Positions 2 to 52,992 of a stretch of DNA of 64,000 nucleotides are shown one piece after another. Both the position numbers and the translations under genes were made by a program. Position 1 is the first letter of the stretch. The number at the start of each line of letters is the position of its first letter. The notes below the pieces were generated by a model. The model did not search any database. It saw only the letters and a list, made by a program, of their open reading frames with translations, and was not told where the DNA came from. The DNA is from Dehalococcoidia bacterium. Lineage in GTDB: Bacteria; Chloroflexota; Dehalococcoidia; Lucifugimonadales; UBA3495. Location of the stretch: assembly GCA_034420475.1 (NCBI GenBank), contig DAOULH010000042.1:9187-73186 (forward strand). The letters are read 5' to 3'.

Positions 2-2884
2 CTCACCGACGGCGTCCACTACTTCCTGCGCCGGGTGGGCGAGGAGAAACTGCCGCTGCGACGCGGGGAGACGCATCGCACCTTTGACCGGCCGGAACAG
101 GCGCCCCGGCTGCGGGAGTACCTGCACGGCATCATCTCGGCGCCGGCCGAAAACGTCAGCCCCACGGCGGAGAACCTGCAACGCTGCTTCGGCAGCGACT
201 CCGACGCCTTCCGCGCCGGCAACCTGCTCTTGCAGGAAGCCTACGCGGCCCGCCGCGACGACCCGACGGTGGCGGTGAAACGCCGGCTCTGGCAGGACCT
301 GCTCCAGGTGGCCCTGGGCAAGGACGCCGCCACGGCCGGCGACGAAAGCGACTGGCTGTTCATCCGGCACACCTACATCACCAGCCTGGTCGCCCTCATC
401 ATGCAGCAGCAACTGCTGGGCGACGTGGCCCGCCACGCCGCCGAAAGGCCGGACGCGCTGCTGAAAGGACGCATCCTGGCCGAGCAGTCCGACTTGCACG
501 GCGTCATCGACGCCGACCTGTTCACCTGGCCCACCGAGGCGGGAGAAAGCGCGTATCTGCGGGAAATCGCCCGCGTCGTCGAGCAATTTGACTGGACGCA
601 AAGCCCGCGCGAAGTGGCGCCCACCCTTTACCAGAACGTGATCACGCCGGACGAACGCAAGCGGCTGGGCGAATACTACACGCCGCGCTGGCTGGCCCAG
701 GAAATCACCGCAGCCGTGGTTGACGACCCGCTGCACCAACGGACGCTGGACCCATCCTGCGGAAGCGGCACGTTCATCGAAACCGCCATTGAGCGGATCA
801 TCAACCACGCCGGCGAACTGTCGGCGGCGGCAACGCTGCGGAAGTTGCAGGAGAACGTGGTCGGGATCGACATACACCCGGTGGCCGTCCAACTGGCCAA
901 GGCCACCTGGGTGATGGCCGCCGCCGGAACCATCCGCGCCGCCCGCGCCGAGAACACAGGCACCGGGACGGACACGGGCGCCGGCGCGGTGAGCGCGCCC
1001 ATCTACTTGGGCGATTCCATGCAGTTGCGCTACGACACCGGCACCCTGGCCGCCAGCCAGTCCATCGAACTGGAAACCCGCGAAACCCTGCCGGGCCACG
1101 CCGGGCCGGTCACCTTCAGCATTCCCAAGGAACTGGCCCGCCAGCAGGCCGACGTTGACCGGCTCATCTCCGAAATGGCCGCCGCCATCGACGAAGGGCG
1201 CGACGCGGAGCACGTCGCCGACGGCTACCCGATGTCTGACGAGTGCCGCCGGAGCATGCAGGCCGTCGCCGCCACGATGCGGGAACTGCACGCCGCCGGC
1301 CGCAACCACGTCTGGGCCTACTACATCCGCAACATGATCCGCCCGGCGGTGATCGCCGAGGAGAAGGTTGACCGCATCATCGGCAACCCGCCGTGGCTCA
1401 CCTACGGCCAGAGCGCGGACATCATCCGCGAGGAACTGCGCGGCATGAGCGAGCAGCGCTACCAGATCTGGGCCGGCGGCAAACTGGCCCCGCACCAGGA
1501 CATCGCCACGCTGTTCTACACCCGCTGCGCCGAGCTTTACGCCAAAGACGGCGCGGTCATCGGCATGGTGCTGCCCCACAGCGCCCTGCGCTCCGGACAA
1601 CACCTGAAATGGCGCGGCGGCAACTACAAGCGCAAGGGCGGGCGCAACGCGCCGAGCGTCAACGTGAACTTCAAGGTTCAAGAACCGTGGGACCTGGACA
1701 ACGTGACGCCGGACTTCTTTCCGATGCCGGCCAGCGTCGTGTTCGCGGAGTACGCGGCCGGCGAAACGGGCCGGCCGCTGGCGCCGGGAACCGTGGAGAC
1801 CTGGCGGGGCAACTGGCAGGACGACTACGCCGGCATCGCCAGGGTGTCGGAGGCCCTGCATCACGATGATGGCAAATTCAAGTCGCCCTACGCCGAACTT
1901 TCCAGTCAGGGGCCGACCATCCTTGACCGCCGGCTGTTCTTCGTTGACACGTTGCCGCACACTGCTGCTATTCCCGCCGCCAACAGCACCAACATCCGGG
2001 CACGTCAAGGCAGTCAGGATAACGTCAAGTACGATGGTCAACTGTACTTGCTGGACGGCGTGATACACAACGACCATTTGTTTGACGTGTACCTGAGTGA
2101 GTGCATTGCCCCTTACGTTGCGCTTGACCCGTTGCACGCAGCCCTGCCCGTGCATCGTCCGTCGATGACTATTCCCTTGCTACCCGACGACGGAGGGCTT
2201 GACGTAGCGGCGCTGAACTCCGCGATGCAACGCCGCTGGAATAATGCCTCTGCGATGTTCAGGGAAGCGCATCAAGGGCGCGTCATTATCGAGCTGTTTG
2301 ACAACCTGAACCACCTCAACAAACTCACCAGCCAGCTCGAATACTTGCAAGGCGCAATCGCCGGCGACGGAACTACGCGCATTGCCTACACCACGCAAGG
2401 CGAACCTACTGCGGCGCTAATCAGAGACAATCGTTCCATCGTAGACCACAAACTATTTCAGACGATTTGCCAATCCGAAGAAGAAGCCCATTACGTGCTT
2501 GCCATCATCAACAGCAACGAGTTGGCAACGCGAGCCAAGCCGTTCTGCACCACCAATTGGGCCAAGAAAATCAGAGACTTTCACAAGCACGGCTGGAAGT
2601 TGCCCATCCCGCGCTACGACGCCGGCGAGTCGCTGCACGTCAAGCTGAGCGAGTTGGGAGCGTCGGCGGAGTCGGAGTGCGCGGCGCTGATCGCGGGCAG
2701 CGGGATACTGGATCGTCCGGCCGGCGACGCCCAATCCCGCGCGGCCCGCCGCCTGCTGCGCCACGAGTGGCAGCCGGAGAGCGAAACGGCGCGTCTGATA
2801 GAATTGATGGTAGCCGAACTAATGAGCGACCCGGGGCAGGCTGACTTGGCGGGGCGGCAGATGACAACCCCAGGGACACGGTAA
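2..2884 (+). CDS. Large N6-adenine DNA methyltransferase (gamma-class, Eco57I/type IIG-like); 5-prime end runs off the window
   Basis: The frame is open from base 2 (LTDGVHYFLRR precedes the first listed start at 35). EYYTPRW, then DPSCGSGTF (SAM motif I), then IIGNPPW (motif IV), followed by about 500 aa of C-terminal extension. Confidence 0.85.
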   Translation, partial: LTDGVHYFLRRVGEEKLPLRRGETHRTFDRPEQAPRLREYLHGIISAPAENVSPTAENLQRCFGSDSDAFRAGNLLLQEAYAARRDDPTVAVKRRLWQDLLQVALGKDAATAGDESDWLFIRHTYITSLVALIMQQQLLGDVARHAAERPDALLKGRILAEQSDLHGVIDADLFTWPTEAGESAYLREIARVVEQFDWTQSPREVAPTLYQNVITPDERKRLGEYYTPRWLAQEITAAVVDDPLHQRTLDPSCGSGTFIETAIERIINHAGELSAAATLRKLQENVVGIDIHPVAVQLAKATWVMAAAGTIRAARAENTGTGTDTGAGAVSAPIYLGDSMQLRYDTGTLAASQSIELETRETLPGHAGPVTFSIPKELARQQADVDRLISEMAAAIDEGRDAEHVADGYPMSDECRRSMQAVAATMRELHAAGRNHVWAYYIRNMIRPAVIAEEKVDRIIGNPPWLTYGQSADIIREELRGMSEQRYQIWAGGKLAPHQDIATLFYTRCAELYAKDGAVIGMVLPHSALRSGQHLKWRGGNYKRKGGRNAPSVNVNFKVQEPWDLDNVTPDFFPMPASVVFAEYAAGETGRPLAPGTVETWRGNWQDDYAGIARVSEALHHDDGKFKSPYAELSSQGPTILDRRLFFVDTLPHTAAIPAANSTNIRARQGSQDNVKYDGQLYLLDGVIHNDHLFDVYLSECIAPYVALDPLHAALPVHRPSMTIPLLPDDGGLDVAALNSAMQRRWNNASAMFREAHQGRVIIELFDNLNHLNKLTSQLEYLQGAIAGDGTTRIAYTTQGEPTAALIRDNRSIVDHKLFQTICQSEEEAHYVLAIINSNELATRAKPFCTTNWAKKIRDFHKHGWKLPIPRYDAGESLHVKLSELGASAESECAALIAGSGILDRPAGDAQSRAARRLLRHEWQPESETARLIELMVAELMSDPGQADLAGRQMTTPGTR

Positions 2885-3531
2885 TGCCAGACACAAGCAC
2901 TATGCCAAACCCAACGGAAGAGCGACCGTTTGCAGTAACCGCCGAGAGATACAACGCGGAACACGCAAGCGGTAAAGTGACCGGTTCCAACTTCCCGTTT
3001 CATGAAGTACGAAACCTGCCAGGGTACGCGGAGCGGGCCACACCCGGTTTGACGGGAAGCGACGTGGTCAAGGAGTTAGCCCGCCACCTTGCGGAGTACG
3101 CAAAGCGAAACGGCTGTCCATTACCTTACGAACAACGCGATGTCGCAATCTACCTATGGGCCCAGGCCAGCCGTCGTATGCTGGAGTGGCAAGAGATACT
3201 GCATGCGGTGCGCGCGACTCGGAAGAGAGACCGACGCCCGCGGATCGCTCATTACTTCGGCTACCGCTCAATCATGCGAAAGCAAGGCAGAGCAAAGGAC
3301 CGGAAACTCATCAAACTGATCCGATACATCACGCAGGAAGGCGAATGCACCGGATGTGGGACAGAGTTCCCGTTTGAGCATCTAACCCTAGACAGAATCC
3401 AACCAGGCAAAGCAAACGGCACATACAACTTGCCCAACGTGCAACTGATGTGCCGGCCCTGCAACAACAGCAAGGGAGACAGCTTCGGCTTTTCGCCCCC
3501 CTCTAACCCATCGATGTCCCCGAAGCATTGA
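2884..3531 (+). CDS. HNH endonuclease
   Basis: The ATG overlaps the methyltransferase stop by 1 nt (TAATG). C-terminal CTGCG...HLTLDRIQPGKANGTYNLPNVQLMCRPCNNSKGD is an HNH/Cys-box motif. Confidence 0.8.
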   Translation: MPDTSTMPNPTEERPFAVTAERYNAEHASGKVTGSNFPFHEVRNLPGYAERATPGLTGSDVVKELARHLAEYAKRNGCPLPYEQRDVAIYLWAQASRRMLEWQEILHAVRATRKRDRRPRIAHYFGYRSIMRKQGRAKDRKLIKLIRYITQEGECTGCGTEFPFEHLTLDRIQPGKANGTYNLPNVQLMCRPCNNSKGDSFGFSPPSNPSMSPKH

Positions 3532-12847: not shown

Positions 12848-12941
12848 AGCTGCGACCTTCCTTGACCCGACCACCGGCCGATGCTAAATTGGCCGCCGTG
12901 TTTCGTTACTAAGATTACGATTTTCGTCGCGTGGTACAGGA

Positions 12942-13904
12942 ATGAGCGAACTGGCCGAACGGGTGCTGAAGGGCGAGCTGCGCGCTCTGTCACGGGTGTT
13001 GACGTTGCTGGAGCGCGGCGATCCGGCGGCGGCGGAAGCGATGGCCGCGCTGGACCCGCACACTGGCGCGGGATACGCCGTCGGCATCACCGGCCCGCCG
13101 GGAGTGGGCAAGAGCACGCTGGTGGACCGGCTGGCGGAGCATCTGCGGGGAATGGGACTTTCGGTGGGCATCCTGGCGGTGGACCCAACCAGCCCGTTTA
13201 CCGGCGGCGCGCTGCTGGGAGACCGGATACGGATGCAGCGGCACTACCTGGATGACGGCGTGTTCATCCGCAGCGTGGCGACTAGGGGACAGTCCGGCGG
13301 GTTGCCGCGCATCGTCAAGAGCATGGTGCGGGCGCTGGACGCCGCGGGCAAGGACGTGACGCTGGTGGAAACGGTGGGCGTGGGACAAACCGAGCTGGGC
13401 ATCATGGGTGTGGCGGACACCGTGGCGGTGGCGATGACGCCGGAGTCAGGCGACTCGATACAGACGCTGAAAGCCGGCGTCATGGAGATCGCCGATCTTT
13501 ATGTAATCAACAAGGCCGACCGGGACGGCGCCAATCAGCTGTCGGCAGCGGTGACGGCGATGTTGCAATTGTCGGACTTGGGCGACGGCTGGAACCCGCC
13601 GGTGCTGCTGACCCAGGCATACGCCAACGTGGGGATCGGGGAGCTTTGGGACAGCGTGACCGCGCACCGCGATTACATGGCCGATACGGGCGGGCTGGAA
13701 AAGCGCCGGGCCGAGCGGCGGCGCGCGGAATTCCTGGAGACGGTGCAGGAGGAACTGTACCGGCGGATCACGGAGCGGATAGGCGACGACGCGGAGTTGG
13801 GCGACCTGCTGAGGCAGATAGACGGAAAGGCTGTGGAGCCTTACGGCGCGGCGATGGGGCTGCTGGCGAACGAAGGAGGGTTGGCTAATCTTGCCGGCGA
13901 ATAA
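12942..13904 (+). CDS. meaB: Methylmalonyl-CoA mutase-associated GTPase MeaB/ArgK
   Basis: GITGPPGVGKST (P-loop), LAVDPTSPFTGGALLGDRIRM, VETVGVGQ and NKADR. Confidence 0.85.
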   Translation: MSELAERVLKGELRALSRVLTLLERGDPAAAEAMAALDPHTGAGYAVGITGPPGVGKSTLVDRLAEHLRGMGLSVGILAVDPTSPFTGGALLGDRIRMQRHYLDDGVFIRSVATRGQSGGLPRIVKSMVRALDAAGKDVTLVETVGVGQTELGIMGVADTVAVAMTPESGDSIQTLKAGVMEIADLYVINKADRDGANQLSAAVTAMLQLSDLGDGWNPPVLLTQAYANVGIGELWDSVTAHRDYMADTGGLEKRRAERRRAEFLETVQEELYRRITERIGDDAELGDLLRQIDGKAVEPYGAAMGLLANEGGLANLAGE

Positions 13905-13916
13905 TGGAGCATAGCC

Positions 13917-14369
13917 GTGGACAGTGAAGGTCGGCGGCGGGGAGTCGATGGTGATGATTCGCTGCTGGCGTCGGTTGCCGGCGTACCGCTGACACGGATG
14001 GCGCGCATCGCGGTGTGCGTGATTTGGGCCGGGTTTTGGGCGGCGCGCGTTTTGCTGACCGATGCGATGACGCACATTAGCCCGCTCGATGCAAAACTGC
14101 TATTATCGGAATTAGTGGGTCCAGGGCCGGTCGACCAGGCGTTCAGCATCTGCATGGTATGGCTGACGGTTGAGGTGGCGATCATTGCCGCAGACGTTGT
14201 ATCAGGAGGGACAAGAATGCTCTTTGCCAAAACACCGAAAAGCCTCAAAGCAAGTATTTTGGATGGCCTTACCGAAGGCTTTACGGTCGAAGAATTGGAA
14301 GCCCTAGTTGAAAAGAAACGGAAGGAAAGGCAGGAGAAGGCCGCCAAAGAGAACGGCCAGAAAGGCTAA
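13917..14369 (+). CDS. Hypothetical membrane protein (150 aa)
   Basis: ORF with a GTG start, hydrophobic segments and a Lys/Glu-rich tail. No family recognised. Confidence 0.4.
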   Translation: MDSEGRRRGVDGDDSLLASVAGVPLTRMARIAVCVIWAGFWAARVLLTDAMTHISPLDAKLLLSELVGPGPVDQAFSICMVWLTVEVAIIAADVVSGGTRMLFAKTPKSLKASILDGLTEGFTVEELEALVEKKRKERQEKAAKENGQKG

Positions 14370-47542: not shown

Positions 47543-48430
47543 ATGGATACGATCATCATCAAAGGATGTCTGAACGGCAGTCGCGGCCGGGAGCAAAACC
47601 CGAATATTCCGTTGGCGCCGGAGGAAGTGGCACAGGAGGCTATTCGGTGCTACGAGGCGGGAGCGTCGATAGTCCATATCCACGCCCGGACGCCGGACGG
47701 CGGCATCAGCTACGACCCGGCGTGGTATGCCCAGACGGACGCGATGATCCGGGCGCAGTGCGACCTGGTGCTGAACCACACCACGGCGCGGCAGGCCCAC
47801 GTGCCGGTGGAGGCGGTGACGCGGTATCTGCTGGAAACGCCGCAGCCGGTGGAGATGGTATCGCTGAACCTGGGTTCCGGCACCCGCTGGGTACTTGATC
47901 CCGAGACGGGCGGAAGGCGCACCGTCACCAGCCCGAACTCCTTTGAGGACATCGTGGCCACGCTGGACGCCTGCTACCAGCGCGGCACCTTCCCCGAGCC
48001 GGCCGTCCACGACGTGGGCAACGTGAACGCCGCCATCACGCTGATGCGGGAGGGCTACATTCGGGATTCCCGGTACTTCCTGGTGGAGCCGGGCGCGCAC
48101 TGGGGCGACGGCCGCCTGAACATGGTGGGTTCGCCGCGCAACTACATGCTCATCGCCGACACTATCCGGGAACACTATCCGGAGGCCACCTGGCTGGCGC
48201 ACAGCAGCATGGGGCAGACCTTCCCGCTGTGCGCCATCGCCATCGCCACGGGAGCGCACATCCGCGTCGGCATGGAAGACAGCCCGTTCCTGCCCAACAA
48301 CCCGCAGCCCAGATCCAACGCCGAGTACATCGAATGGGCGGTCACCATGGCGCGGCTGCACGGCCGGGAGCCGGCGACGCCGCAGCAGGCCAGGGACATG
48401 CTGGGGTTGAATCCGTACCCCGAAGCGTAG
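47543..48430 (+). CDS. 3-keto-5-aminohexanoate cleavage enzyme family (BKACE/DUF849)
   Basis: MDTIIIKGCLNGSRG...ASIVHIHAR... The start is taken at 47543 (an alternative ATG is at 47516). Confidence 0.75.
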   Translation: MDTIIIKGCLNGSRGREQNPNIPLAPEEVAQEAIRCYEAGASIVHIHARTPDGGISYDPAWYAQTDAMIRAQCDLVLNHTTARQAHVPVEAVTRYLLETPQPVEMVSLNLGSGTRWVLDPETGGRRTVTSPNSFEDIVATLDACYQRGTFPEPAVHDVGNVNAAITLMREGYIRDSRYFLVEPGAHWGDGRLNMVGSPRNYMLIADTIREHYPEATWLAHSSMGQTFPLCAIAIATGAHIRVGMEDSPFLPNNPQPRSNAEYIEWAVTMARLHGREPATPQQARDMLGLNPYPEA

Positions 48431-48640
48431 CGACGATGGGAGGGAACAAGCCGACGCCAAGGGACCGGCTCAGCCTCTACGCCGTGCTGTACCGCTACGG
48501 CGGCGTGGAGCGCCGGCTGGACCTGGCCGGCTATCGGGAGCTGCAGGACGCATCAGCCGGGCAGTGACGGCTTTCGCAGCGGAGACGTTTCGCTTGACCG
48601 GGACGGGGGCGGGGGATTTGGCGGATGGGAGGTAGGAACT

Positions 48641-50473
48641 ATGACGCAACAATACAACCTGCTAATGCCTCAACCCGGAGATTTTTACATCGCGGATTGT
48701 CTAACCGTGCTGGAACGTATGCCGGATGAGGTTCTCGACGGCGTGTTTATCGACCCGCCGTTCGGCAAAGCGCGAACCTTCAAAGGAACTCTCATCAAGT
48801 CGCTAGACGGCGAGGAGATGGCCGCTGAAACCGCTCTGCTCAGTCAGTGGAGCATCAACACGAAAGCGGATGCCGATGTGTACGGCATCACCTACCCTGA
48901 TGACACCGACACCACAAATTTCCGTGACCTGTGGGCGTGGCGTGACCACGTGCATGGTGAATGGCTCGATACCTTAGACGAACACGCCCCGAATACCGGT
49001 CTGGTAGTGAAATGCGCAAAGGAGAACGCAGGCAACCAGATTGGTGCGTACATTGCATGGATGGCGATACGCTGCTGGCACATTCACCGGGTCAGCAAGA
49101 CTACTGCATGGTTCACGTACCACTGCGACAGCACCGCCAACGGATACATTCGCCCCATGCTCGACAGCATTTGGGGCAGTGACGGATTCGTCAATGAACT
49201 TACCTGGCGGCGCAAAGAAACTCCATCCGGCAGTCAACACTCAGCCAACAGAATCGGCGTGCTGACCGATACCATCTTTATTTACCGCCGTGAACACGCC
49301 GGCAAGCCCAACACTTTTCGTCCCAGAACCGAAGCAGAAATCAAATCGCATTTCCCACTGGTGGACGAAAATGGAGATCGGTATTTTGATGACACTAAAA
49401 GCATATACCGGGCACCGTCTATGGCACCTAGACCGAACCTATGCTACGAGTGGCGCGGATTCACCAACCTGAACCCAAGCGGATGGCGATTGTCCAAAGA
49501 GCGCATGGAAGAAGAATACGCAAAAGGAAACATCGTCATTCTTGATGAAGGTGATCCTGATAATCGGCGTATTCAGCGCCGCGCCTACGCGAGGAACAGC
49601 CTTGGCCAGCGGCTCGGCAATCTGATCACCGACATCAAACCGCTGACCAATGCTGGCCCGAACGGAGAGAAGACGGGCTATCCTACCCAAAAGCCCATCG
49701 CTCTGCTGGAGCGTCTCCTGCACATTGCCGACATAAAGCCCGGGGCGCTTATCGGAGATTTCTTCGGGGGTTGTTCCACCAGCATCATCGCCGCTCAAAA
49801 CAAAGGGATCGACTGGATTACGTGCGACGTAAACGTCCGCGGCTGGACGATGACCCAACGCCAGTTTCCCAAGCATGGTTACGAGCTTGTGCTGGCCGGA
49901 ACCACGCCGCGCCTCAATGATAAAGCCCCAGTGGACTGCCGAGTACTTGGCCCGCAATACCCACAGCAATTCGATCGGGCTACGCTGGTCATGCCCGACT
50001 ACCACCCGCCGGAACCCATTGAAACCCGAGACGCACTGTTGCTGTCCGAACCGCTTATGCTTGAACTGTTGCTCGCTTCCAGCGGCTGGCAATGTTGGGG
50101 ATGCGGTTATCATGTCCGCAATCAACTTGGCGAACTGCGGCAAGACCGACGGTATTTCCACCTCGACCACGTCAACCCCAAGAGTGCCGGCGGAAGCGAC
50201 GAAATCATCAATCGCGCTCCGTTGTGCCCGCCCTGCAACGGCGACAAGTCGGACGATATGAATTTGAACGCGCTCCGCAATGCCAACAATTCACCGGCCA
50301 TTAACCGTCAGTTCTGGGGTGGCACTGCCCCTAGCCTCAGGCGACTGACACAGGTTCAAGAACGTCTCAATCGTCATTTTGAGACGATGCGCAGCCGTAC
50401 CAGACTGGCACGCACTCGGGAAGCGGAACGTCTGCTTAAAGACTACGCTGAACTCAACAAGATCATCGGATAA
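48641..50473 (+). CDS. Beta-class N6/N4 DNA methyltransferase fused to a C-terminal HNH nuclease domain (610 aa)
   Basis: FIDPPFG (motif IV) comes first, then GYPTQKPIALLERLL and DFFGGCSTS (motif I). C-terminal CWGCG...FHLDHVNPKSAGGSDEIINRAPLCPPCNGDKSD is an HNH motif. Confidence 0.8.
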   Translation: MTQQYNLLMPQPGDFYIADCLTVLERMPDEVLDGVFIDPPFGKARTFKGTLIKSLDGEEMAAETALLSQWSINTKADADVYGITYPDDTDTTNFRDLWAWRDHVHGEWLDTLDEHAPNTGLVVKCAKENAGNQIGAYIAWMAIRCWHIHRVSKTTAWFTYHCDSTANGYIRPMLDSIWGSDGFVNELTWRRKETPSGSQHSANRIGVLTDTIFIYRREHAGKPNTFRPRTEAEIKSHFPLVDENGDRYFDDTKSIYRAPSMAPRPNLCYEWRGFTNLNPSGWRLSKERMEEEYAKGNIVILDEGDPDNRRIQRRAYARNSLGQRLGNLITDIKPLTNAGPNGEKTGYPTQKPIALLERLLHIADIKPGALIGDFFGGCSTSIIAAQNKGIDWITCDVNVRGWTMTQRQFPKHGYELVLAGTTPRLNDKAPVDCRVLGPQYPQQFDRATLVMPDYHPPEPIETRDALLLSEPLMLELLLASSGWQCWGCGYHVRNQLGELRQDRRYFHLDHVNPKSAGGSDEIINRAPLCPPCNGDKSDDMNLNALRNANNSPAINRQFWGGTAPSLRRLTQVQERLNRHFETMRSRTRLARTREAERLLKDYAELNKIIG

Positions 50474-50516
50474 ATCGCGCCTGCCCGTGCTGGCCAAGCG
50501 GAATCGGACCTTGTTA

Positions 50517-50981
50517 CTAACCCAGGGCCATAAACCCTCGGAAGTTCACCGCCACGTCCGCCCCTTTCGCCAGGGCCGCCAAGTACAAGTCGCGGTCCAC
50601 GGTCAACAAGGGAGTTTGGGGGTTGATGGATTCCAACAGGGCGGCGTCAGTGAGGCCCAGCGGCGCGAAATGGGGATTGGCGGCTGCCTGGGCGCTGGCG
50701 ACCACCACCTCATTGCTTTCTTCAATCAGGTAAGCAAGGCGATCCATCAGCAGGGACCGCTCGGGCTCGCGGTGCTGGCGGAGAAGGTTGGAGGCTTCCG
50801 TGAGCGTGTTGGGAGTGACGAATATACGGCGAACTTCGTGCAGTACAACGAGCAAGAGCTCGTAATCGTCGGCGGTAAAATCGTCCAGCCGTCGGTGCCT
50901 GGCGATAATGTCGGTGTCAACACCTCCCGCCACCAAAAGGATGAGCAAGTTCGCGTCAACGAAGTATCCTATCAACGGCAT
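50517..50981 (-). CDS. PIN-domain protein (154 aa)
   Basis: FVDANLL (first Asp), TLTEASN (Glu), GLTDAALL and LLTVDRDL (acidic residues) in PIN order. Confidence 0.65.
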   Translation of the reverse strand: MPLIGYFVDANLLILLVAGGVDTDIIARHRRLDDFTADDYELLLVVLHEVRRIFVTPNTLTEASNLLRQHREPERSLLMDRLAYLIEESNEVVVASAQAAANPHFAPLGLTDAALLESINPQTPLLTVDRDLYLAALAKGADVAVNFRGFMALG

Positions 50982-51262
50982 CAGGCTTTCAGGTCCGGTA
51001 GCAGGCGGTCGGTGAGAGCAACGATTCTGCCATCATCGTTGTTGATGTGAACCACTTTGTAGGCACGGGGAGTCTTCATGCCCATGCGAACTGCTACGGT
51101 GTTTTCCCGGTCCCAGGGACGGGCGAAACCGAAGGTGATGCGCCACTCATCGGAGTCAACATCGTACAGGACTTCTTCCAGTCCAAGCTGAGAGATTTCT
51201 TCATCAGCGAAAACTTCGGCTACGTAATCTCGCGCCGTTTTGGTAACTTCTTTCACGTCCAT
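50981..51262 (-). CDS. Small protein (93 aa) overlapping the PIN gene start; putative cognate partner
   Basis: Its stop overlaps the PIN ATG by 1 nt. No recognisable RHH/AbrB/HTH motif. Confidence 0.5.
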   Translation of the reverse strand: MDVKEVTKTARDYVAEVFADEEISQLGLEEVLYDVDSDEWRITFGFARPWDRENTVAVRMGMKTPRAYKVVHINNDDGRIVALTDRLLPDLKA

Positions 51263-51401
51263 TTGTTGCCTCCTCGTTCCCTGCCGACATTATTGTATCT
51301 TGGCCCGACGGCAGGCGGCAAAGCAAGCGGCAGCGCGTGCTAGAATCTGGGCAGCGCCGCGGTGATGGAACCCTGCCGCCCCGTCAATTGGAGCAACGAA
51401 A

Positions 51402-51788
51402 ATGTCCGCCGCAACCGAGCCGGAGCGCGACGCGCGCGCCATTACCGATGACTACCTCAACCGGGCCTGGGCCGCTTATGAATCCCATCGCCTGGAGCTT
51501 GGCTCCACCTACATCTGGAAGGCTACGGAGGTTGCCCTGCGCTGCGCCGCCGCCAAGCGCGGGATGACTGTGGACACGCCGGATGAGCGGATCGATTTTG
51601 TCGAGTTGCTGGACTCGGAAAACCGCAACAAACATCCCAGCCACTATATCGCAGCCCTGCTGGCCAACGAGCACTATCGGCATGACTCAGAGCTGGGCGT
51701 TATGCCGGGTGATGACCCGACCAAGTACGCCGACCTGGCTGTGGACTTCATCAACGAACTGCTGGAAATGGCAGAGGCCGCGGAATGA
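51402..51788 (+). CDS. PaREP1-like/HEPN-like helical protein (128 aa)
   Basis: Helical. IWKATEVALRCAAAKRG parallels the WGTVAQLTKAVA motif of 29816-30857. ATGA overlap with the next gene. Confidence 0.5.
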   Translation: MSAATEPERDARAITDDYLNRAWAAYESHRLELGSTYIWKATEVALRCAAAKRGMTVDTPDERIDFVELLDSENRNKHPSHYIAALLANEHYRHDSELGVMPGDDPTKYADLAVDFINELLEMAEAAE

Positions 51789-52150
51789 CCTGGCAGGAAC
51801 TTTACGCGATTGCCAGATCGCTACGGCAGCGAGCCGACTGGCTGTTCGACCGCAGCGAATACCAACTCGCCGGCGAAGGGATCTGGGGCGCTTTGCACTA
51901 CACGGCAAGGGCGTTAACCGAATGTTTTGGACGGGCTGCCGGCCAATCCCTCAGCGACGGGCATATTCCTACCCTGCCTAACTTTCCAAGTGACATCAGT
52001 CAACGAAAGCGTCAATGGCGTGCGGCCCGCGCCCTGCATATCCATTTCTATAACAGCAACCTTACTGCCGCAGAAATGGAGCGTAGTCGCGCCCAAGCAA
52101 CGGCACTGTTGAACGAAGCCTTCGGCGTGTTGCAGTCAAATATGGCGTAA
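51785..52150 (+). CDS. PaREP1-like helical protein (121 aa)
   Basis: AGEGIWGALHYTARAL and LHIHFYNSNL parallel AGEKGWGTVAQLTKAV and LHGNFYEVYM. Confidence 0.5.
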   Translation: MTWQELYAIARSLRQRADWLFDRSEYQLAGEGIWGALHYTARALTECFGRAAGQSLSDGHIPTLPNFPSDISQRKRQWRAARALHIHFYNSNLTAAEMERSRAQATALLNEAFGVLQSNMA

Positions 52151-52167
52151 CCGCCAACCGTCCCGCT

Positions 52168-52992
52168 TCAATCAATCCGCCGGCCGCGCCAGTATTGGGG
52201 CGGCCGTTGGTAATCGTCGTCGCGCCGGCCGCGACCGCCGGATCGGGAAATACCGCCCGGGCCGCGCCGGAAGGGTCGGACGGCCAACCCCACGATGGCT
52301 CCGACCACGAAGCCGCCGATGTGGGCGAAGAAGGCAGTGGAGACCTCATGGCTCACACCGATGGAGAGCAGGCCCTGGATGGCTTGCAACGCGAACCAGA
52401 TGACGAGTAGCCAGACCGCGCGGAGCTCGATCACGGTGATCAGAATGTAGATCAGCAGGGTGCGGATGCGATTGCGGGGGTAGAGGAGGAGATAGGCGCC
52501 CATGACGCCGGAGATGGCGCCGCTGGCTCCGACCAAAGGGGTCTGCGACGACGGATCGATTGCGTAATGCGAAAGGGTGGCGAGGACACCGGCCACCAGG
52601 TAGAACAGCAGGTACTTGAGGTGACCGAAGGTGTCCTCGATGTTGTCCCCAAAGACCCACAGGAACAGCATGTTGCCGATGAAGTGCATCAGGCTGCCGT
52701 GGATGAACATGGAGGTGAGCATCGTGCCCCAGGTCGGGATGGGAGACGCGATGTCGATCCCACCGGAGCCGACCGGGATCAACTCGAATGCCCGGCCCGA
52801 CGACAGTTCGGCGGGTATGAAGCCGAACTGCAGGAAGAAAACGAAAATCGGCAGGCCGCCTCCGCCGAAGAGGAACCCGAAGCCGCCGACGCTGATCTCG
52901 TAAAGGAATACGAGAGAGTTGAGGCCGATCAGGACGAGGTTGACGACCGGGCGGGAGCCGTGACGCCGCCCGGCGTCGGAGATGGGCAGCAC
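52168..52992 (-). CDS. Rhomboid-family intramembrane serine protease
   Basis: HGSLMHFIGNM, GASGAISGVMGAY (catalytic Ser) and FAHIGGF (catalytic His). Confidence 0.85.
   Translation of the reverse strand: MLPISDAGRRHGSRPVVNLVLIGLNSLVFLYEISVGGFGFLFGGGGLPIFVFFLQFGFIPAELSSGRAFELIPVGSGGIDIASPIPTWGTMLTSMFIHGSLMHFIGNMLFLWVFGDNIEDTFGHLKYLLFYLVAGVLATLSHYAIDPSSQTPLVGASGAISGVMGAYLLLYPRNRIRTLLIYILITVIELRAVWLLVIWFALQAIQGLLSIGVSHEVSTAFFAHIGGFVVGAIVGLAVRPFRRGPGGISRSGGRGRRDDDYQRPPQYWRGRRID

Follow-up and report, generated by a model that had tools for sequence, protein, structure and literature searches.

A beta-class DNA methyltransferase fused to a C-terminal HNH nuclease in an accessory island of a Dehalococcoidia bacterium: a candidate single-chain restriction-modification enzyme

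Restriction-modification (R-M) enzymes of Type IIC are defined as carrying a nuclease and an N6-methyladenine (m6A) methyltransferase (MTase) in one polypeptide chain (PMC2441816), and such polypeptides may, as monomers, show an M+R− state and turn R+ upon assembly (review, PMC12707154). We analysed a 64,000-nucleotide stretch of DNA from a Dehalococcoidia bacterium (contig DAOULH010000042.1; referred to below as the window), which contains a gene at positions 48641–50473 whose product corresponds to this definition at the domain level, with a nuclease and an m6A-type MTase in the same chain. Like the enzymes of Types IIC, IIG and IIL (Eco57I, MmeI, BpuSI, BcgI, TstI and the Thermus TspGWI/TaqII family), the fusion protein combines nuclease, MTase and a predicted target-recognition domain (TRD) in one polypeptide, with one TRD for both activities, no ATP motor and probably displaced cleavage. 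The known characterised members of these types consist of an N-terminal PD-(D/E)XK nuclease, a gamma-class MTase and a TRD at or near the C-terminus. In contrast, the fusion protein starts with a beta-class MTase similar to the Mod subunits of Type III systems, which contains an internal TRD and is followed by a C-terminal HNH nuclease, and it is related to the IIC/IIG/IIL enzymes in sequence only at the level of the MTase superfamily.

Three further groups of described systems resemble parts of this architecture. With the Type III Mod subunits (EcoP15I, 4zcf; Mbo45V, 7dsu), the fusion protein shares a body of MTase and TRD, the beta-class motif order and the position of the TRD between motifs VIII and X. 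Unlike in Type III systems, no Res subunit (a superfamily 2 ATPase with a PD-(D/E)XK nuclease) is encoded nearby in 27 compared loci of the family, and an HNH domain is fused to the MTase instead. The Type IIS systems MboII/M.MboIIA, MnlI and HpyAV, which have been listed as HNH enzymes (review, PMC4081073), likewise pair an HNH restriction endonuclease (REase) with a beta-class m6A MTase, but as separate proteins and with a recognition domain of its own on the REase, whereas the fusion consists of one chain with a single TRD. Finally, a C-terminal HNH domain of the CxxC...DH...N...CxxC type attached to an N-terminal DNA-recognition module is found in the Type IV enzymes EcoKMcrA, TagI, VcaM4I and ScoMcrA, whose N-terminal modules are non-catalytic readers of modified bases. 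Because the N-terminal module of the fusion protein is an MTase with intact catalytic motifs, its expected target is unmodified DNA.

Domain architecture and conservation of the fusion protein

A first-pass annotation of the window had described the gene from its motifs as a single-chain beta-class MTase with a C-terminal HNH domain, and both domains are recovered above the Pfam cut-offs, with the motifs as quoted there. The protein matches PF01555 (N6_N4_Mtase) over residues 34–398 with 53.5 bits (cut-off 26.7) and PF01844 (HNH) over residues 485–538 with 31.6 bits (cut-off 21.4), the two domains being separated by a linker of about 85 residues. The order of motifs IV, X and I corresponds to a circularly permuted MTase (IV–VIII, TRD, X, I–III). 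We assigned the enzyme to the beta class because of this order and because its fold matches those of RsrI, MboIIA, CcrM, M.BceJIV and Type III Mod proteins; PvuII is also among the fold matches. The catalytic motif is DPPY/F in N6-adenine and SPPY/F in N4-cytosine MTases, which allows the target base to be read from the motif, and the DPPF motif found here points to an MTase of the N6-adenine type. The TRD segment of the protein is of the RPNLCYEW...GWRLSKER...EEYxKGN type, and its HNH box reads CWGCG...HLDH...N...CPPCNGDK, with C485, C488, C529 and C532 as zinc ligands and D509-H510, N524, N533 and K536 as catalytic residues, among which the D-H pair provides the general base and the Asn residues bind the metal.

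Other profile collections added only generic matches. No NCBIfam model scored above its cut-off, and a relationship to IscB/Cas9 was rejected, the NCBIfam match reaching only 24 bits against a threshold of 175 and reflecting generic HNH similarity. PADLOC recognised the MTase part with the generic models MTase_II, MTase_III (E values of 2e-13 to 1e-10) and those for orphan MTases only, and both PHROGs and PADLOC matched the methylase part and the HNH part separately. The Pfam models PF02384 and PF07669, which stand for the gamma-class (N6_Mtase/Eco57I) MTases of the Type IIG/IIL families, do not match the fusion protein, unlike the second MTase encoded in the window (see below), which matches them. 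A scan for promoters and terminators yielded nothing exceeding the expectation from shuffled sequences.

An AlphaFold2 model, calculated from a 38-sequence alignment, reached a mean pLDDT of 83.4, with low confidence only at the N-terminus, in one loop and at residues 449–465 of the linker (pLDDT <50). In a Foldseek search against the PDB, the top match was EcoP15I Mod (E values of 1e-15 and 1e-13 over 470–480 aligned columns), followed by the beta-class enzymes M.BceJIV, MboIIA, RsrI, CcrM and Mbo45V Mod. The TRD segment aligned structurally with the body of EcoP15I Mod, and the HNH part matched EcoKMcrA (6ghc), the closest solved HNH structure. Only about half of the family has the insert after motif IV, for which helices are predicted at residues 57–69 and 75–81 (gap fraction of 0.4–0.6 in a 65-sequence alignment), and the C-terminal tail (residues 541–610) is weakly conserved and gapped in most members.

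Searching 5.8 billion proteins returned 612 matches at E≤1e-5, and more than 100 sequence clusters share both domains among the top 120 matches; no source names were attached to ten clusters of the family. The closest relatives are one ortholog with 95% and one with 73% identity, both of the same length as the fusion protein, whereas all others reach at most 42%. The species-representative genomes that were scanned yielded fused genes from 14 metagenome-assembled genomes (MAGs) of Dehalococcoidia and from three Poribacteria, together with single cases in Nitrosopumilus, Flammeovirgaceae, Marinacidobacterales, Acidobacteriota, Chloroflexota, Hyphomonadaceae, Caldilineaceae and Latescibacterota. 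In a crude neighbour-joining tree of the constant MTase region, drawn to look for a single origin of the HNH clade, the HNH-containing members split into six pure clades. We found no characterised example of a fusion between a beta-class MTase and an HNH domain in the full-text literature or among the profiles of Pfam, NCBIfam, PADLOC and PHROGs, in a search that did not extend to REBASE. The family is widespread and apparently uncharacterised. An origin of the fusion from phages or plasmids was rejected: when 50,697 phage records and 72,556 plasmid records were searched with tblastn, no match extended over at least 80% of the protein, all matches ending before the HNH domain, and the HNH domain is reached in none of 82 homologous open reading frames (ORFs) from viral contigs, compared with 31 of 90 from cellular genomes.

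Conservation of the active sites was counted over 148 family members. The DPPF motif is kept in all 141 ungapped sequences, Q350 and K351 in all 148, and D373, F375, G377 and C378 in 146–147 of them. The catalytic residues of the HNH domain, on whose conservation the first-pass annotation had made its interpretation depend, are likewise retained in the relatives, the complete D-H...N...N set being intact in 144 of 148 sequences (D509 in 145, H510 in 146, N524 in 145 and N533 in 147). Among the zinc ligands, C488 is kept in 144 of 148 members, and C485, C529 and C532 are changed only to Ala or His, in a subgroup. The linker is the variable element, ranging from 16 to 111 residues across the family. 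Compared with the 95% ortholog (locus L001), the fusion gene shows a ratio of non-synonymous to synonymous substitution rates (dN/dS) of 0.083, in line with the values of flanking housekeeping genes in the same comparison (0.082 for a xanthine-dehydrogenase-type gene and 0.086 for DAHP synthase); dN/dS is 0.04 in the TRD segment, and the HNH domain contains no non-synonymous changes at all. Judging from these ratios, the gene is under strong purifying selection.

Exchangeable C-terminal modules and target-recognition segments

Relatives that do not carry the HNH domain were considered as plain MTases, which was ruled out by their C-terminal tails of the REase-fold or T5orf172 type. A common tail is present in 131 of the 134 other relatives, 53 of them cellular and 78 viral (e.g., L012, L083 and L113); its representatives match Mrr_cat/NA-iREase1 above the cut-off and show an invariant D-x-G-I-D-G...V-K core. 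In two tandem genes (L076:9971-12773), a T5orf172/MUG113 module takes the place of the HNH domain. Phage records call the Mrr-type relatives just 'DNA methylase', as in the case of gp49 of Streptomyces phage OzzyJ.

The second variable position is the segment between motifs VIII and X. Tandem MTase-HNH paralogs were found in a Flammeovirgaceae MAG (four copies, L006:5472-11392) and in a Dehalococcoidia MAG (two copies, L007:8405-11659), whose proteins are near-identical in the catalytic motifs, linker and HNH domain and are unrelated only between these two motifs. In the Flammeovirgaceae array, the constant parts are 90–99% identical in DNA sequence and separated by near-identical spacers of 127 nt, and three different TRDs are distributed over the four copies. 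These arrays look like a reservoir of specificity variants, and the central TRD segment is the predicted specificity module of the fusion protein. In R-M enzymes that use one recognition module for both activities, the exchange of nuclease modules and of TRDs is a hallmark. Some genomes contain truncated extra MTase-HNH copies in addition to a full one (L005:17928-19028; L045:10253-11254 and 12863-14023), which points to turnover and decay of paralogs.

The accessory island and other genes of the window

The coordinates of the fusion gene, its parts and the other genes are collected in Table 1. As proposed in the first-pass annotation, the fusion gene opens an AT-richer island, on which GC content, codon usage and the empty sites of relatives agree. 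GC content is 0.53–0.60 in the island compared with 0.62–0.70 in the flanks, and the GC content at third codon positions is 0.59–0.76 (0.63 for the fusion gene) compared with 0.85–0.90. In the relatives L164–L167, the gap between the BKACE and rhomboid genes measures only 87–175 bp, and L169 contains a different, unrelated small gene at this position; the BKACE proteins of the relatives are 78–81% identical, and the gene order is kept (xanthine dehydrogenase, BKACE, rhomboid, cytidylate-kinase-like, acetyltransferase, DAHP synthase). Because the relatives hold empty or alternative sites, we regard the 3.7-kb segment as an insertion at a variable hotspot, and by its composition and these sites the fusion gene was acquired horizontally. 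The recipient genome is of the SAR202 type within the Chloroflexota, judging from close homologs of its BKACE protein, which bear SAR202, Dehalococcoidia and Chloroflexi names. At the island ends, we detected no flanking repeats beyond chance length, no integrase, no tRNA gene and no target-site duplication. Small genes of the Asp_protease_2-like (retropepsin) type occur at variable positions around BKACE (L001:8176-8893, L169:8893-9258), which is a further sign that the flanks of BKACE are a hotspot for accessory genes.

Table 1. Positions of the fusion gene, its predicted parts and other features in the window
Feature	Position	Strand	Remarks
3.7-kb accessory island	48431..52167		flanked by the BKACE gene (end at 48430) and the rhomboid gene (end at 52168), which are convergent
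Shine-Dalgarno sequence GGGAGGT	48627..48633	+	7 nt 5' of the fusion-gene ATG; from sequence
MTase-HNH fusion gene	48641..50473	+	single intact ORF, 610 aa
MTase motif IV DPPF, N6-adenine-type catalytic loop	48752..48763	+	aa 38-41
Helical insert after motif IV	48776..48910	+	aa 46-90
TRD segment, motif VIII to motif X	49211..49660	+	aa ~191-340
S-adenosylmethionine (SAM)-binding part	49676..49780	+	motif X GYPTQKP (aa 346-352) to motif I DFFGGCST (aa 373-380)
Variable linker	49856..50080	+	aa 406-480
HNH nuclease domain	50093..50254	+	aa 485-538; Pfam HNH
Helical C-terminal tail	50261..50470	+	aa 541-610; only in the subclade of the window; predicted helices
PIN-fold (VapC-like) gene	50517..50981	-	154 aa; in convergent orientation to the fusion gene
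93-aa gene	50981..51262	-	upstream of the PIN-fold gene, 1-nt overlap
Two overlapping small ORFs	51402..52150	+	128 and 121 aa; not alike each other
Gamma-class N6_Mtase/Eco57I-type MTase gene	35..2884	+	at least 949 aa; start may precede the window
Separate HNH gene	2884..3531	+	215 aa; start overlaps the MTase stop by 1 nt

The neighbours of the fusion gene are BKACE upstream and the PIN-fold gene downstream, and neither is a restriction or specificity gene, in line with the earlier observation that no such gene is adjacent. The existence of a conserved partner was also rejected more widely: clustering 317 neighbouring ORFs from the 27 loci revealed no family present in more than five of them, the recurrent families were generic (the commonest, in five of 27 loci, being an ABC-type protein), and no helicase/Res-like or specificity gene recurred near the fusion. 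Around the 73% ortholog, the neighbourhood is a different, unrelated one, and its downstream 146-aa gene is unrelated to the PIN-fold gene. In three loci from two phyla, a DUF1015 gene lies directly upstream of the fusion (L002:2218-3519, L014:8572-9834, L029:8715-9983). Co-transfer of the two genes was rejected, the DUF1015 proteins being only 32% identical, and the adjacency may be a coincidence or reflect a preference for an insertion site.

The 95% ortholog in L001 occupies the same site, with flanking DNA of 67–86% identity. The fusion gene itself is a mosaic relative to L001, containing blocks of 99–100% DNA identity at positions 49091–49270 and 49991–50260. Synonymous divergence (dS) from L001 is 0.32 for the fusion gene and about 0.03 for the HNH domain, compared with 0.6–0.9 for the flanks. 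The mosaic pattern suggests a recent recombinational exchange or gene conversion; a second copy within the window was considered as a source of the identical blocks, and none was found.

Downstream of the fusion gene, where the first-pass annotation had placed a PIN pair, the 154-aa gene is PIN-like by fold. Its protein gave no Pfam match, PIN models included, and its family comprises at least 1,908 clusters (at 90% identity). Its AlphaFold2 model (pLDDT 83) has the PIN proteins PAE0151, AF0591 and VapC20 as top fold matches, which are modest (Foldseek E value of 6e-3, TM score of 0.5–0.6), and the acidic residues D8, E61, D111 and D128 do not vary among 28 homologs, which together support a PIN/VapC-like nuclease at the level of the model. 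The 93-aa neighbour has no family match in Pfam or PHROGs and keeps its position in L001 at 46% identity; it is plausible as a candidate antitoxin of the PIN-fold gene. The PIN-fold gene shares the island with the fusion gene and is not a conserved partner of it, no homolog being present beside the 73% ortholog. The label PaREP1-like, which had been given to the two overlapping small ORFs, had to be dropped, as they gave no match in Pfam (even at E≤10), NCBIfam, PADLOC or PHROG. They are missing from the otherwise syntenic L001 and are a strain-specific indel within the island.

A second association of an MTase with an HNH nuclease near the start of the window, also pointed out in the first-pass annotation, is real and consists of separate genes for a gamma-class MTase and an HNH protein. 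The gamma class of this MTase also distinguishes the unfused pair from the MboII-type systems. Its HNH domain shares 27% identity over 59 residues with the fused one.

Possible functions of the fusion enzyme

We consider it probable that the fusion gene codes for a stand-alone, ATP-independent, single-chain R-M enzyme, which would be similar to Type IIC enzymes and built on a Mod-like beta-class N6-adenine MTase. A combined enzyme of this kind had been one of the options offered in the first-pass annotation, and it is the best-supported one after the comparative analysis, its function being predicted by analogy. This interpretation draws on the conserved motifs, the low dN/dS, the Mod-like fold, the mosaic identity pattern, the swapping of nuclease modules, the TRD-variant paralogs, the absence of a partner gene in the compared loci and the location in an accessory island, and is further favoured by the unfused MTase-HNH pair in the same window and the adjoining PIN-fold gene. 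The analysis shows which domains the protein consists of, that they are conserved and modular, and that the gene stands alone and was acquired horizontally.

Adenine methylation, cleavage, cut geometry and a role in defence would then follow from a scheme in which the body of MTase and TRD recognises a short site in the DNA, which is probably asymmetric. In the presence of SAM, an adenine in the resident DNA would be methylated, which would prevent productive binding or cleavage. Incoming DNA that is unmethylated would be cut on one strand by the HNH domain, held on a flexible linker whose length varies, near the site but probably some way off it. Because an HNH domain has one metal ion and one active site, a double-strand break would need two protomers, which may be supplied by a Mod-like dimer or by two sites, and this requirement would hold back restriction until methylation is in place. 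If the TRD were changed, restriction and modification would change jointly, which would account for the tandem arrays of TRD variants in other genomes.

Several points weigh against an R-M enzyme. Its role rests on analogy, no characterised example of the architecture having been found, and HNH domains often only nick DNA. The Mrr-type sister group is frequent in viral contigs, making up 78 of the 82 homolog ORFs from them, and there a role in anti-restriction or host takeover is as plausible as one in defence. A Mod-like enzyme may methylate only one strand and would then have to escape self-cleavage after replication. Moreover, the TRD type of the window is widely shared and well conserved in the family, and there is therefore little sign of diversification within it.

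Other functions, among them the homing and nicking options of the first-pass annotation, were weighed against the same observations. It is unlikely that the gene is primarily a selfish or homing-type element, whose HNH nuclease would cut unmethylated alleles, such as sister genomes and empty sites, with the fused methylase protecting the carrier; such an element would spread and persist via break-induced recombination and post-segregational killing, and phage defence would be secondary. The gene does move alone, as seen from the unrelated neighbourhood of the 73% ortholog, it is present or absent at the hotspot among relatives, its blocks of 99–100% identity lie between flanks of only about 80% identity, its dS of 0.32 is below the 0.6–0.9 of the flanks, and transposases are scattered near other copies, all of which a selfish element would account for. 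However, there is no intron or intein context, target-site duplication or repeat at the island ends, the island holds unrelated genes as well, and the locus is syntenic in two genomes diverged at the species level (flanks of about 80% DNA identity) and under strong purifying selection. This possibility also overlaps with the 'selfishness' of ordinary R-M systems and does not exclude a stand-alone R-M enzyme.

We attach a similarly low probability to an orphan or counter-restriction MTase derived from mobile elements, in which the nuclease-fold module would bind or target DNA, or would be a nickase that aids enzyme loading, and would have no restriction activity. The nearest annotated relatives are indeed phage 'DNA methylases' from replication or early regions (Streptomyces phage OzzyJ gp49), the best Pfam match of the sister tail is a 'NACHT-associated inactive REase', and the sources label the members only as 'DNA methyltransferase'. 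Yet the catalytic residues and zinc ligands of the HNH domain are almost invariant, which is unexpected for a mere binding module, the REase-type tails retain a catalytic D...D...K set, the HNH version occurs in none of the 82 viral and in 31 of the 90 cellular homolog ORFs, and the tandem arrays with their TRD variants fit a diversification of specificity. A housekeeping function in methylation-coupled, strand-specific nicking, such as a Dam/MutH-like strand discrimination or a replication-linked role, appears highly improbable. It would agree with a site-specific adenine methylase and a nuclease with a single active site in one polypeptide and with the strong purifying selection, but close relatives with BKACE proteins of 78–81% identity have empty sites, the codon usage of the fusion gene is foreign, some genomes carry multiple and truncated copies, and TRDs are swapped between paralogs.

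If the gene does code for a stand-alone R-M enzyme, it would represent a fourth single-chain R-M architecture, composed of a beta-class Mod-like MTase and a C-terminal HNH nuclease without an ATPase, and it would show that linking a nuclease to a Type III-like methylase is enough to make an autonomous R-M enzyme of it. Such a compact enzyme, with one cassette-like TRD for both activities, would be attractive for engineering specificities. More tentatively, and with less confidence than for the single enzyme, the whole family might be an unrecognised minimal class of R-M systems, consisting of a Mod-like scaffold with a swappable TRD cassette and a swappable C-terminal nuclease (HNH, Mrr-type PD-(D/E)XK or T5orf172/GIY-YIG-like). 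In that case, the TRD-variant arrays of L006 and L007 would serve to diversify specificity, and new restriction enzymes could be reprogrammed by exchanging the TRD, as is known of the MmeI family for the gamma class. An R-M enzyme of this type would provide a function for hundreds of genes that are labelled only 'DNA methyltransferase' in little-studied lineages such as SAR202, Poribacteria and Thaumarchaeota; metagenomic studies report an enrichment of defence genes in sponge-associated communities in which such lineages occur (PMC5649159, PMC5099237).

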